DNA from: Octopus vulgaris
Taxonomy: Eukaryota
Assembly: GCA_951406725.2 (NCBI GenBank)
Contig: OX597816.1
Coordinates: 143,902,001 to 143,966,000, forward strand
DNA length: 64,000 nt
Direction of reading: 5' to 3'
This document shows positions 3,466 to 58,025 of this stretch, piece after piece (position 1 is the stretch's first letter; each line of letters starts with the position of its first letter). A program made the translations under genes and the position numbers. Below the pieces are notes generated by a model that was not told where the DNA came from, ran no database searches, and saw nothing but the letters and a program-made list of their open reading frames with translations.

Positions 3466-3828
3466 ACTTCCTACTACTACTACTACTACTACTACTACTA
3501 CTACTAATAATAATAACAATAATAATGATGATGATGATTATGATGATTTCTTTTAAAATCTCATAGTTATTTCGAAGCTTCTGGCTTTCTTTTATACATT
3601 TCATTGTACACTCACTGTACATCATGCATACATACATACGATCATACACACACAGATATATAGTTGAGCGATTAGCCACATCAAAGTGGCAGATGAATGT
3701 TACTACTTGTTTAATTCCAGGTGGGTTCTCCATCTGCTGGTTTTCGGTGCAAACCCTTCGCCCTTTATATACAATATATCGCTAGTAGGGGTAGCGAATC
3801 CTTACTATCCTTCAGCAGCTGACAGGTT

Positions 3829-3873
3829 CGCGGGACCGGCCAGTTTCGAGCTATTTGGCTCACATCAGCCGCG
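3829..3873 (-). ncRNA. Type I hammerhead ribozyme motif (A9-to-U variant)
   Basis: cgcgg-CTGATGT-gagc caaata gctc-GAAA-ctggccg-GTC-ccgcg; helices I, II and III all pair. Confidence 0.7.
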
Positions 3874-3878
3874 CGATA

Positions 3879-4252
3879 TCTTTCTCTATATATAAACGGC
3901 AGTTTGTCTGTGCGTGTTTCTGTGTGTCTGTTTGCTTGTACCCTCACCCTGACCACGGCTTTCAACCGATTCTGATGAAACTTGACACACACATAGCCCA
4001 ATGTCATAATTCAAAACTAACGCAGCGAAAATTTTGAAAAGTTCCCCCAGTTCTGAAAAAAATCGATAAATTCGACATGGGGTCGAGAATCAGAAACACG
4101 AACCACAAACTGTCTAGGGGACGCAACTCCATCCTTTTTTAACTCTCAAAAAAATTTACCATATTTTTTTCCATTTTTTGGCTATAACTCTCTTAAAATG
4201 CTTTATAGTTATTTCCCTTACAAACCTGAGCAACGCCGGGCGATACTGCTAG
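3879..4252 (+). mobile_element. Non-autonomous Helitron
   Basis: Starts TC, ends with the CCTGAGCAACGCCGGG hairpin then CTAG; A|T target with no TSD; removing it restores the host inverted arm. Confidence 0.8.
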
Positions 4253-5040
4253 TTGTATATAAAGGGTGCAAAGCTTGCACCGAAAACCAGGTGGCGGAGG
4301 ATCTGCCTGGGGTTAAACTAGTGGTAACATTCATCGGCCACTTTGATGTGGCTACTGGCGTTACTGTTTAGTGTACATTAATACTCTATGTCTTCTTGAT
4401 ATTTTATAAATAGCTATTTTGCTTATATATATATATATATATATATATATATATATATATATATATGTCTGTGTAAGCGCGCGCATATGTATACATGCAG
4501 ACACATACACATGCATGCATATATTCATAAGCGTTGTAAAAGGTTGATTTTGATTGGACATGGTTTGAGAAACAGAATATACTTATGGCAACTGTTTTGA
4601 ATTATGAAAGTCATGGCACAGATCCTTATCGTATTTGGGGAGTTTTACAAAAGCATACATTTCAGAAGTTAATGATGCAACGTGAGATTTAGAGAAGCTG
4701 CTGACTTTGTCATAGAGAAAGTCTAATGACGAATGAGGATTGGCTAGTTTTGAGTGCACATCTCTGACTTTGTGGGCTAAAGAAGGAAACAAGGTTTTGG
4801 CGAAGAGAATATACATTATACATACATGTATATAAGAGTGTATGAGCGTATGTGTGTACGTATGTGTGTGTTTAACTTCGTAAACCATATCGCTTAACTG
4901 AATTATATATACTCTAATTATGTTCAACGACCAAATAATTTACCTTATAATACCCTGTAATAATTGTGATTTTAGTTGAATGTCACTAATAGAATGGGAT
5001 CTAACTAAATACTGTGGGGGGTTTATACTGAGTGTATAAT

Positions 5041-53530: not shown

Positions 53531-55625
53531 ACTAAAGAGATAGTAAGTGGAAATGGGGTGGTACGCAGGGACACGGAAGTTCCACTAATTTTGAGTGCAG
53601 AAGTTGAGCGCTTAGACCTTAACATACCCCTGGTTCCTGCTCAAGGAACCAGGTAGTCATTAGTCATTTTAGTAGGCAGTCATTAATGTTATCCACTATC
53701 TTTCCAACTCAACAAGAAGGCTCTTTACATGCTTTGCTTATTATAACAAAAAGGGTAGCAAATTGATTATATCCGCTGCAACAAAATTTTCACAAGTGTT
53801 AGTTTAGGCTTCCAGCAGTTAAATTCTGAAAATGAAGCGACATCATAACAGACATACTTTGTATTTGTAAGACCCCCAAACTCATGGTATGGCGCCTCAC
53901 AGCATGCATCCCAGGAAATGTCGCTGTAGAGACGGGTAATTTGATAAATGATACACAAAATCGGCGACCATTAAATTTATGGTAACATTTTCACGAATTG
54001 AATGTTCGTTATATAAACGAAGAAAATATAAATTATATCGGCAGAAAGAGCCGTAGAAAGTTTCGCGACGAATTACAAGACTCAAACATTTGAACCAACA
54101 ACGTCCTTCGTTATTGATATTGTCAGTAATTTAGTTTGCGTTAAATGCGAGTTATTTTCAACAGATAATATAACACGATGAATCGAAAATATTCAAAGTA
54201 AGAAGTTGTTGTCACTGTCGATGTAGTGGCGGTGACGGCAACCGTAGTAGTTTAGTATTTCTTTACACTCAACAGCCCAACTCGTTACAGTTTCTAAAAT
54301 AAACCCGTTCCTCTTATACATCAAGTATTTACTTTTAAAGAGTCACCTATCAATTTCTATTATTAAAAGATGTTACTAAAAATAAGAGATCCTCTGGCAA
54401 ACACGTACATGCAAACACACAAACGTCATTCACACAATCATATATGTGTGGTACTTAAATGTACAGTCATGCTGGGAGACACTCAAACCCATTTTTGATT
54501 TAAACAAATATTTTTACATCTTCAAAACACAACAAATGCGCATACACTCAATCGCTGACGCACAGACTCTAACAGAAACAACAGAATGAATACAAACAGA
54601 TAGTTGCACAATTTCAACAAACACATGTAGAGAGATACACATCCTCCTTCTCTTGTAGCTATTCCATTTGCCCAAAGGCAATATGATACTTTAAAATAAT
54701 TTGAATTTTCAGAATATATATACATACATACACAAACACATACATACATACATACATACATACATACATACATACATACATATATATATATATATATATA
54801 TATATATATATATATATATGTACTGTAAACTTAGCATTATACGCGTAAACACCCTCTTCTACAAACTAGGTGATGTTTAGCCTGTACCACAGATCCTAAA
54901 CTATTATCTGATTCTCGAAGCCTGTAAGCATTTAAGCCTCCCAAATTGTAGTTGATAACTTTTAGTCTCAAACCAAAATAATATCTTCCACCTTCGAGAC
55001 GTTTTCCTTTCTTGCCTTTGTAAATCATTTTGGTTGATAGGATAAGTGAAGCCTAGAATTTGTAGCGATGTTAGTTCAGAATGCGCGCTTTTCATGTGTT
55101 GAGAGAAAGATTATTTGAAATCTCCTACCATGGAATCATTACTTAATTAACGTGAGATGTGTTGGCTTCGTGTGTGTGATGCCTTGATACAAGATTTTAG
55201 GGAGGAATAAATAATTAGGGATAAATAAATAAATATCTGTGTAGGTGATGTACATAGAAAGAATTGCCCAGGGAACAAACTTGAACCTTGGGAACAACAG
55301 AGTTGATAGTATGGTTCAGAGAGAGCTCTATCTGTACATTCTGAAACGTTATGATACAACTGGAAGCAACCAATCTAAAAGAGTGCAGATGGGTGGGTCC
55401 CATTGGCAGGCAAATTTACTAGACTAAATTTCCTGCCAGATACAGTAAAAAATCAAAACTATGTATTACATGTTCTTGAGTTAAGGAATGATTTCTTTTA
55501 TTGCTATAAAATTACCAAAAATAGTCCTTCTGTTGGTTATATGTGTAAATTAACTTTTACAGTCTTGAACTTCATTGACAGCTAAATTATTTCACGACAA
55601 AACAACTACACCAAGAAACAATATT

Positions 55626-55680
55626 TGTCAGGTACAAGAGGAGTGTCAGGTACAAGAGGAGTGTCAGGTACAAGAGGAGG
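55626..55680. repeat. 17-bp tandem repeat x3
   Basis: TGTCAGGTACAAGAGGA(G) repeated. Confidence 0.85.
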
Positions 55681-57966
55681 GAAATGCGATGAGTGTAATG
55701 TTATTTCAAAAGTATGAACACTGCACCAAATAACATGAACATTTTTGTAAAACAGAACTACCTATAACAAGGATGGCTACATGTCACAACAGATCAACTT
55801 CTCATTAACAAAACTGTGCTATCAGAGATACAGCAGTATAAGAGGTAATTAATTACAGTTTGGTTAGATTAAAAGGAAGTGGTCAACCCTGTTCCTCAAT
55901 CGTAAATGCTAGAGACCCTTCAACTTGCTTTATTTCAAGAGACCTTTATCAGAGCCATAAATAACCTGATTTCATCCTGATTTCATCCTAGAGTCAAATA
56001 AATATAGTAATTTATTGTCGCTGATAGGATTCAGTTTGACAGGAATAAATTTCATGGAGACGATATCTCTGTGATGATGTTTATATTTCCAGCTCACCGT
56101 TTTCCTTTTTGCTGAGGAAATGTAAAGAATACACAAATTGCTCGTTGTGGACTTCTTAAGAATATGCTCAATAATATGAATAGTATGAAGACGAGCTGAG
56201 ACTGAGAGTGCCAAAATATAACTGAGTGGAATTTTGGGAGGATAAATATTTCTGCGTGACTGAAAATCGAGGGATATATACAAGCTAGTCTAGCAACATC
56301 ACTATCAATGGCTTAACTATTTTCCCGGCATCTGTAAACAATAACACAGATGAAAATAAGTGCTCAACACCGCATTGATGGATATAATTTCTTTATTTGT
56401 GAATTACAGCTACCATTGGTTTCATGTTCAGAAAAGTAGGAAAATATCCTAATGTCTTAACAATTTTTCAAGCCGATCATATGGAGAAAGGTGTTCGCCT
56501 CCATTTTGGAAAACATAATCTCGTTTAGTTTGCGAAGATTCTCGTGAATAGAAGAATGTGTAGCAATATTGTTTTCTTCATTGCTATCTTCACTGTTTGA
56601 GAAAAATATTAAGAATGATCTCGTTTGAGATTACAAACATCTTTGGCTAGTTTAACCTTGTTGTGTCCACTGATTTGATTGGTTAGCATCTAAGCGTGGT
56701 CTGTCTCAACTTATTTCGCGCCAGTGTGTAAACTGACCAATCACGGCTTTCGGATAGGACTTTTCATTTGAGCCATCTTAACTCTTTAAATAGGCTGATA
56801 TATCACGATTCACTGTCTTTTGGCTAAAGACCTTTTAAGGTCTTGGTCGGAGACCACACAGAGCTTATTCAACCATGTTCCAGTTCGAAAGGCAGACGAC
56901 AGCCAAGCCAAACATAATAGGAAGACGCTATTGTAAACCAGCGACAGACATAACGTCATCACCAACATCGTCTCCATCTACGAAGATTTCAACTTGTACA
57001 CAAGATAAATACAGATTCAACTCATGCTGTTAGTGTGAAAATCTCACCACGGAAAAACAGTTGCAGTATATATATCTGAAAGAATATCTATATCAAGAGA
57101 AAAATATGCACAACAAGTGACCCAACTAATCTCGGCTCCGAGACTCAAATCTTGTATAGAACTCATTATCGTGTACTACATGAACTGGTAAAATAACTTC
57201 ATTTAACTCAAAATGTTGAGACTTCTCTTATGCTCTGTTGTATTTGCATAAACCTTATTCTGTACTTCTGTTGCACACACGAACACACGGACACAAAAAA
57301 TATTATAAGCATGCATCCATGACACAACACTACGCTAATAATAACAAATCATTTTGTACACTGTGAATAAAATCTATCTTCTCTTTATAAAAGTAGAACG
57401 GTTTTTGGAGTCCTTATTTCATATACTTTGGCACTGTTTATAAACATGTATTATGGCTTATATAATATCATATTATATTAATTATATTATGTTATGTTGG
57501 AATGCGGCCGGACGCCGAACAAGAGGAGAAATATGTCACCGAAACTCCTCACGTACGGTCGTTTTCTAACAAATGAATTAAGAACCGTTATTTTCAGGTG
57601 GCATTTTTTGAATGTTAGTCTTCCTTGGATTTGTCTTTTAGGCAAGCTGTTTTGTGGTCAATTGGTTTACCTTATTTTGATTTTGTTCTGGAGGTAGTTC
57701 GTCGTTGGGACATATTTCTTCTGCATGTGGAGTTTGTGTGCTATGTGTGTTCAGATTTCGCGTCCAGGAATATATATATATATATATATATATATATATA
57801 TACAACTTATAAACAAGGACAAAAGAAAAATTATTTCCATGCCAATATGCTGATAATAGACTTTAAGTCGTCAATTTCCACATATCATTATACACTCACT
57901 ATAAATACACGTCGTGCTGAAATCAGGAAAGATGGTCAACAGAATTTAAAAAAAAAGAGTTCGTTA

Positions 57967-58025
57967 TTTCTATATTGAATCAATTTCGGGATTAATCCCA
58001 TGGATTTTTTCCTCATCAGTAGAAA
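57967..58025 (-). ncRNA. Type I hammerhead ribozyme motif
   Basis: tttcta-CTGATGA-gg...cc-GAAA-ttg att ca-ATA-tagaaa; intact core, 6-bp helix I. Confidence 0.75.

Follow-up and report, generated by a model that had tools for sequence, protein, structure and literature searches.

The window

The stretch analysed here, 64,000 nucleotides (nt) of the Octopus vulgaris genome (assembly GCA_951406725.2, contig OX597816.1, positions 143,902,001 to 143,966,000; hereafter the window), contains five non-coding inverted repeats, which we designated E1 to E5, together with Penelope-like elements (PLEs) and a long interspersed nuclear element (LINE). An original prediction had reported that these repeats share one geometry, in which the 3' ends of hammerhead-bearing units point outward, without sharing sequence. 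All five exist at the positions claimed, none of their ten pairings gave blastn similarity, and the 3' ends face outward in each. The coordinates first given for them were right for the symmetric part; with family references we found that one arm continues as a tail, at a single end, in E1 to E4, so that the full extents are ~3660-4425 (E1), 21531-22059 (E2), 36385-36581 (E3), 38430-39018 (E4), and 41047-41543 (E5, truncated before both family ends). The five fold-backs are a known insertion form of PLEs, an inverted 5'-truncated copy with a one-sided tail, and the geometry itself is already published and known in outline. Their parts are as follows.

3660..3878, minus strand: E1 short-end arm and loop, from a ~345-nt tandem retrozyme-like unit
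3829..3873, minus strand: E1 type I hammerhead, A9U, palindromic helix III
3879..4252, plus strand: presumed Helitron-like later insert in E1, outside the fold-back proper
4253..4425, plus strand: E1 long-end arm and tail, terminating in (TA)n
21531..21715, minus strand: E2 short-end arm, hammerhead with a helix III mismatch
21719..22059, plus strand: E2 long-end arm with ~149-nt tail, hammerhead with G12A; 3' end of a Hydra-like PLE family
36385..36424, minus strand: E3 short-end arm, 40 nt
36425..36581, plus strand: E3 long-end arm, 5'-truncated copy of a tRNA-headed family, ~37-nt tail, candidate 9-nt target duplication
38430..38807, minus strand: E4 long-end arm with ~138-nt tail, damaged hammerhead core
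38804..39018, plus strand: E4 short-end arm, core with G8A
41047..41213, minus strand: E5 left arm, intact hammerhead 41134-41191, outer end cut
41216..41543, plus strand: E5 right arm, intact hammerhead 41362-41419, 488-nt tandem retrozyme-like family, outer end cut

Most of the E1 loop is the unrelated 374-nt insert at 3879-4252, which was near-complete in 8 other loci of the 339 retrieved and which we take to be Helitron-like (TC start, hairpin then CTAG, between A and T). The (TA)n setting originally described for these elements applies to the E1, E2, E4, and E5 families; E3 lies outside (TA)n, and its family has target-site duplications of ~8-13 nt. Assembly artefacts do not account for the palindromes, as the arms have diverged independently and complete E3 fold-backs lie between target duplications. 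Contigs from four other runs, aligned over E3, showed many joints with differing centres and reached both flanks, but their 26-27 letters within the element fall short of the 31 required for bridging.

Two fixed 3' ends and the pairing of long and short arms

The 2.8-Gb genome was sampled by retrieving the 30 best-scoring loci per element (loci are numbered with the prefix L), and long and short ends were scored by a pattern tally and partly by eye. The ends of E5 and E1 were rescored apart from the tally, as the E5 tail is palindromic and otherwise gives false calls. A young relative of E2, a Hydra-like PLE with 78% protein identity and a 3623-nt unit, was sampled as two sets (25 regions picked via a reverse transcriptase (RT) match, and the first 20 insertions by position) and by a genome pattern search that gave 1,439 exact matches, the first 100 of which were analysed.

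Every family has two fixed 3' ends, which lie 37-157 nt apart; the tail between them measures 37 nt in E3, ~50 in E1, 82 in E5, 138 in E4, 149 in E2, and 157 in the young family. Two-armed insertions pair one long end with one short end almost without exception (~123 of 128 scorable insertions overall). In the young family the pairing held in 16/16 two-armed insertions from the RT-picked regions and in 15/15 from the position-ordered set, and the chance of 31/31 is ~5e-10, as independent ends would give such pairs at most half of the time. The position-ordered set also held four single-armed insertions and one that was unresolved, so that 15 of 19 resolvable insertions were two-armed. Among the window families, long and short ends were paired in 15 of 28 distinct E2 loci and 7 of 10 further ones (one with a partial tail), in 16/30 tail-anchored E3 loci (a selection that makes the main arm long) and 18/29 head-anchored ones (two tiny arms scored by eye), in 8/29 E4 loci (one partial), in 18/29 E5 loci plus a second insertion in L022 (five arms being ~10-30 nt), and in 9/30 E1 loci. 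The other family loci had no inverted arm or were unscorable, and L136 was left unclassed.

Orientation is not random. The first 100 young-family matches fell into 62 clusters, 31 of which had both strands, all outward and none inward, at a spacing of 174-5528 nt. The inner ends vary from copy to copy in every family, and thus the question raised earlier, whether copies share a palindrome centre, is answered in favour of single-insertion products. A replicating palindrome, either of the miniature inverted-repeat transposable element (MITE) kind or as an ambisense ribozyme RNA, was considered and rejected because centres are variable and ends unequal.

Haplotypes, inner ends, and junctions

Source haplotypes of the young family could be told apart by 29 shared columns among 41 arms, and opposite arms had the same source haplotype in 7 of 8 young insertions, where 0.7 would be expected. 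Likewise, the subfamilies of opposite arms matched in the E5-family loci L004, L005, L020, and L028. The inner ends of young insertions were at most 15 nt apart in 6/31 cases (0.66 expected by permutation, p ~5e-5). In 5/31 the long arm consisted of tail only, and in 16/31 the short arm extended >50 nt further 5' than the long arm; given such tail-only long arms and further-reaching short arms, the two cannot have been copied one from the other. Of 30 junctions, 18 had an overlap of 1-20 nt, 4 were blunt, and 8 had inserted letters. We therefore favour double priming on one RNA, with an occasional second template.

Hammerhead motifs

A strict scan of the window found 8 hammerhead motifs, compared with a mean of 0.03 (maximum 1) in 60 dinucleotide shuffles of it. 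Rfam output was dominated by microRNA-like matches on simple repeats and held one weak hammerhead match (HH9, 3829-3873, 29 bits, below the cut-off) among the 150 of 156 matches listed. Outside the five fold-backs and the PLEs described below, the motifs are as follows.

20038..20104, minus strand: degenerate hammerhead region, 73% like the E2 family
35983..36020, minus strand: degenerate hammerhead-like motif, U3/A8 core, weak stem II
38133..38232, minus strand: degenerate E4-family relative, 73%
40351..41035, plus strand: partial tandem, 138-nt direct repeats with period 547, intact hammerhead 40797-40869
41676..41741, plus strand: canonical type I hammerhead, intact
57791..58104, minus strand: older E5-family relative, 78%, hammerhead 57967-58025

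Six solo hammerheads had been listed previously, and those at 40797, 41676, and 57967 are intact; those at 20050, 35983, and 38184 are degenerate. The copies at 20050, 38184, and 57967 are related to E2, E4, and E5, respectively, and are older. Three further motifs (at 21347, 22176, and 26647, inside PLE repeats) had been overlooked. Ribozymes on both strands, which had been reported for three elements, are borne out by the two intact cores of E5 and contradicted by damage in E2 (left, helix III mismatch; right, G12A) and E4 (left, A13G and U16.1C; right, G8A). Counting E2, E4, and E5 together, damage affects 4 of 6 arm motifs. The long arm of E3 has an intact hammerhead (36446-36491).

Helix III is palindromic in every family. 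By strict patterns the core was intact in 24/28 E2, 15/30 E3, 15/29 E4, at least 18/29 E5, and 1/30 E1 copies, and because cores are frequently intact in the families, the source elements likely retain them. Most copies span the cut site, and therefore uncut RNA would be the usual template. Motifs of E5 and E3 folded alone had predicted stem II probabilities of 0.95-0.99 (E5, 0.98-0.99), which fell to 0.0 on both strands in the whole E5 fold-back and to 0.06 in that of E3; the E1 loop motif was still predicted to fold inside its hairpin. A pivot at the ribozyme cut site was rejected as a rule, being seen in one of 15 unbiased two-armed insertions (L320). The hammerhead was likely just copied along and unnecessary for the fold-back shape.

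E2, its PLE partner, and E4

E2 is flanked on both sides by PLE sequence, the second element below ending ~12 bases from its long end.

20363..21470, plus strand: Neptune-like PLE 3' fragment, endonuclease remnant, hammerhead 21347-21382
22071..27338, minus strand: Neptune-like PLE with a frameshifted open reading frame (ORF), RT 23145-25382, GIY-YIG 22723-23427

The latter is bounded by direct repeats (22071-22892 and 26542-27338, 94.7% identity), with hammerheads at 22176-22213 and 26647-26684. The proposal that these elements were mobilised by PLEs is supported by E2, which at other loci (L152, L155, and L252) has an adjoining ORF with RT and C-terminal GIY-YIG upstream. These motifs were identified by eye, and a Pfam search of the partner ORF gave no RT or GIY-YIG match. 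Judged by these ORFs, E2 forms the 3' terminus of a PLE encoding RT and GIY-YIG. The partner has a DKT motif, a C-terminal GIY-YIG, CxxC and CxH, no CCHH, and a (TA)n target; it deviates from the Hydra clade in having RW-L rather than RWK, no CxCX5C linker, and a 3623-nt unit (Hydra, <3 kb), and we therefore call it only Hydra-like. The ORFs at the three loci also have an asparagine-rich linker between RT and GIY-YIG, and such a linker has been reported in rotifer Penelope elements (PMC3846280).

The very young Hydra-like family (e.g., L247, L250, and L251) has many open 899-codon frames, occurs in tandem arrays, and forms fold-backs of up to 2.9 kb at 99.8% identity. Beside one of its arrays lies a 1-kb inverted pair (L248:4688-7090, 99.6%) with a PLE-like C-terminal frame, and in the complex insertion L309 one head-to-head junction occurs in two copies, which suggests that a fold-back was re-mobilised or duplicated. 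A second young PLE family (e.g., L266 and L271) has many open 781-codon frames and GIY-YIG. For E4, an RT remnant (39%) was found upstream in 1/30 loci. Among 30 GIY-YIG loci there were no E1, E3, or E4 ends, and one had a separate E5-like insertion.

Retrozyme-like E1 and E5, and a SINE-like E3 family

E1 (~345 nt) and E5 (period 488 nt) are non-coding tandem units with a type I hammerhead, and their upstream sequence continues into the preceding unit; by this organisation they are retrozyme-like. Five E5-family pieces (L011, L016, L017, L025, and L028) have one end at unit position 287-296, which may mark where transcription begins or where reverse transcription halts.

E3, on the other hand, begins at its own head. 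Its parent unit (~330 nt, non-coding) comprises a tRNA-like head, (AAT)n, the hammerhead, and the tail. In head-anchored loci the head is continuous with the hammerhead body (29/30), head starts coincide to within a few bases, and the sequence before them contains no sense-strand unit. Compared with host tRNA-Arg the head was identical at 50/75 columns (z 7.9), the best of 30 host tRNAs, which span some isotypes only and include one (L217) taken on the wrong strand; ARAGORN and Rfam did not call the head as a tRNA. By eye, it has A- and B-box-like motifs, a putative RNA polymerase III (Pol III) promoter. A 19-mer of the family had 6,122 exact genome matches, and among the first 100, inspected by eye, pairs <1 kb apart were outward in 8 cases and inward in 1. 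The ends are of PLE type, with two 3' ends and an inverted arm, not of LINE type with a simple-repeat tail. As judged from sequence, then, the family is like a short interspersed nuclear element (SINE) and not a classic SINE. It could correspond to one of three tRNA-derived repeats that Ohshima and Okada (1994) reported from octopus. A SINE is defined as being copied by a partner LINE and as having a simple-repeat tail (PMC3531059).

Proposed mechanism and alternatives

Each fold-back is probably one insertion of a PLE 3' end, or of a PLE-carried non-coding unit, in which both cut ends primed, usually on one RNA. The anatomy, the pairing of ends, the variation in centres, the sharing of haplotypes, the overlaps at junctions, and the E2 ORF linkage were observed directly; from there we infer the order of priming, the single RNA, strand displacement, and the repair route. 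Both DNA ends of a cut would prime reverse transcription, one at the short and one at the long start, the two starts flanking the tail and the template usually being the same RNA. The two cDNAs would stop at variable points and be joined head to head by microhomology end joining. A long-start cDNA halting within the tail would leave a tiny arm, and one that displaced the other copy and continued would leave a long palindrome. Lying in the terminal repeat a short way 5' of both starts, the hammerhead would be copied passively. We lean, on balance, towards a broader proposal: that PLEs carry out programmed twin priming, with a protein dimer and two fixed starts on one RNA, one per DNA end, making the two-armed insertion the default product, and that a tRNA-headed, hammerhead-bearing SINE-like family of thousands of copies has taken over this route and would be a PLE-carried rather than a LINE-carried SINE.

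Several observations pull the other way. Long ends are paired with each other in L183 and L101/L103, short ends possibly in L155, L138, and L150, and the L320 junction falls at the ribozyme cut site. One of the seven haplotype matches is based on a single column, the arms of L306 differ at 4 family-shared columns over 2.6 kb, and L003 joins two E5 subfamilies; such mixed arms imply two templates or later recombination. A shared haplotype could also result from two RNAs of one active locus or from a tandem transcript. The excess of equal inner ends is non-significant in E2 (7/18, 4.7 expected, p 0.11), and in E2, E3, and E4 the two arms share family variants about as often as background. The counts rest on top-scoring copies, a non-random sample, the most stringent tests concern a relative of E2 rather than the five window families, and the 30 GIY-YIG loci yielded no protein-coding partner for E1, E3, or E5.

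The mixed arms of L306 and L003 and the two long-with-long cases are what would be expected if each subunit of the protein carried its own RNA, usually from one source locus, with an asymmetric dimer setting the long and short ends. Such a scheme needs no strand displacement; by itself, however, it leaves unexplained the arms with the same inner stop (6/31), the long arms that stop inside the tail, and the strict asymmetry, and we regard it as unlikely. Priming at both cut ends, which the original prediction had proposed, remains the best reading of the fold-backs, whereas its two RNA copies are not supported as the rule given the arm pairs of shared haplotype (7/8) and the strict long/short asymmetry. 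Self-priming, in which a cDNA or antisense template folds at a palindrome and is copied and the nuclease trims one end into the tail, has been proposed for PLEs (PMC3846280); the tail has also been regarded as a resolution product (PMC8557442). It predicts the same haplotype and equal inner ends, and palindromes do occur at some junctions (full-length E3 heads meet at a 10-nt palindrome). Nevertheless, tail-only long arms beside kilobase short arms are not mutual copies, barring large later deletions, short arms far outreach the long arm in 16/31, and mixed-haplotype arms occur, so that self-priming is already contradicted for most insertions and is quite improbable in general. Double priming fits the long-and-short rule, the shared haplotypes, and the tail-only arms better.

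In its full form the original prediction had a hammerhead dimer perhaps joining the two RNAs and ambisense self-cleaving hairpin RNAs as possible products. Helix III is palindromic in all families, dimer cleavage is possible for ribozymes of this kind (PMC4209133), the core is intact in most E2 copies (24/28), and the E1 loop ribozyme is predicted to fold. Yet ribozyme-less Naiads are equally structured (PMC8557442), dead ribozymes were without effect on insertion in vitro (PMC11167929), and a symmetric dimer gives no long/short rule and sits poorly with varying centres. A read-through transcript would have the antisense arm first, burying the motif as predicted for E5 and E3, and most arm motifs of E2, E4, and E5 are damaged. 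We find the dimer tether and its ambisense products hardly credible, and return to double priming on one RNA.

Other features of the window

A LINE of L1/Tx1 type (29901-35321, plus strand) has an open ORF1 of 341 codons and an ORF2 of 1132 codons (endonuclease, RT, zf-RVT); it is bounded by a 238-nt direct repeat, 100% identical, and is likely a young partial tandem, and fragments of it that are older and inverted lie at 13083-13528 and 63448-63885. A short element occurs as two inverted copies (93%) at 29057-29268 and 35608-35813; it carries a hairpin, ends in CTAG, and is presumably Helitron-like. A frame at 10060-10617 (minus strand) has a weak FLYWCH match below the cut-off and is likely a Mutator-type remnant. 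Two further inverted repeats were noted, an AT-rich, MITE-like one at 11385-11899 (108-nt arms, 94%) without a hammerhead motif, and a small outward pair at 40092-40304 (25-30-nt arms with (TA)n between) whose geometry is unlike that of the five elements.

Comparison with known systems

What is added here to the published geometry is the counted long-and-short rule, with haplotype evidence favouring twin priming on one RNA, and a SINE-like family, E3, apparently using the PLE route. The counts supply figures for an existing in vitro assay, and the young Hydra-like family, with its 899-codon frames, is suited to it. Fold-backs of this kind also pose an annotation risk, since such hairpins will be mistaken for MITEs, microRNA precursors, or viroid-like RNAs. 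In LINE-1 twin priming, a single RNA also serves as template for the second target strand, and the resulting inversion has a microhomology joint; that second site is used opportunistically, and the arms show no overlap. Here, both sites are fixed and the arms frequently duplicate one another.

Insertions of endonuclease-positive (EN+) PLEs have been described as an inverted 5'-truncated copy with a one-sided 30-40 bp tail, also in ribozyme-less Naiads, the mechanism being left undefined (Craig et al. 2021, PMC8557442), and the same form, with 8-10 bp duplications, was reported by Arkhipova et al. 2013 (PMC3846280). The octopus elements share with these the head-to-head inverted truncated copy, one-sided tail, terminal-repeat hammerhead, partial tandems, and (TA)n targets or short target duplications. 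Tails are longer here (37-157 nt compared with 30-40; PMC8557442), and the tail, described in those accounts as optional or often one-sided, here follows a near-strict, counted rule. With anole Poseidon in vitro, both strands were cut and extended, RT had two starts flanking the tail, a dimer was predicted, and ribozyme mutations were tolerated (Frangieh et al. 2024, PMC11167929); the portions of that study available to us gave no evidence of a different start per strand in one event, which the genomic pairing here implies. The E2 partner resembles the Hydra clade (PMC8557442, section 11) in its DKT, GIY-YIG without CCHH, CxxC, CxH, hammerhead, and (TA)n, and differs in its asparagine-rich linker, RW-L, and 3.6-kb unit, a placement made by motifs.

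The literature consulted, chiefly open-access main text, described no PLE-carried SINE and no PLE twin priming, while supplements may list such families. If true, a PLE-landed tRNA-headed repeat would widen the SINE definition, which names LINE partners (PMC3531059). Animal non-LTR (long terminal repeat) retrozymes (PMC7229834; bioRxiv 10.64898/2026.07.22.740005) are, like E1, E5, and 40351-41035, short non-coding tandem units with a type I hammerhead, and the main texts of these two sources never term the elements inverted or antisense; the E1- and E5-type units, in contrast, were seen mostly as dispersed fold-backs with PLE ends. Finally, schistosome Sm-alpha and Sj-alpha, as reviewed in PMC6765202, resemble the E3 family in being non-coding mobile units in which a Pol III-type promoter, putative in E3, precedes a hammerhead; they are described as tandem repeats freed by cleavage, whereas the E3 family is monomeric, begins at a fixed tRNA-like position, and has two 3' ends, an inverted arm, and a target duplication.

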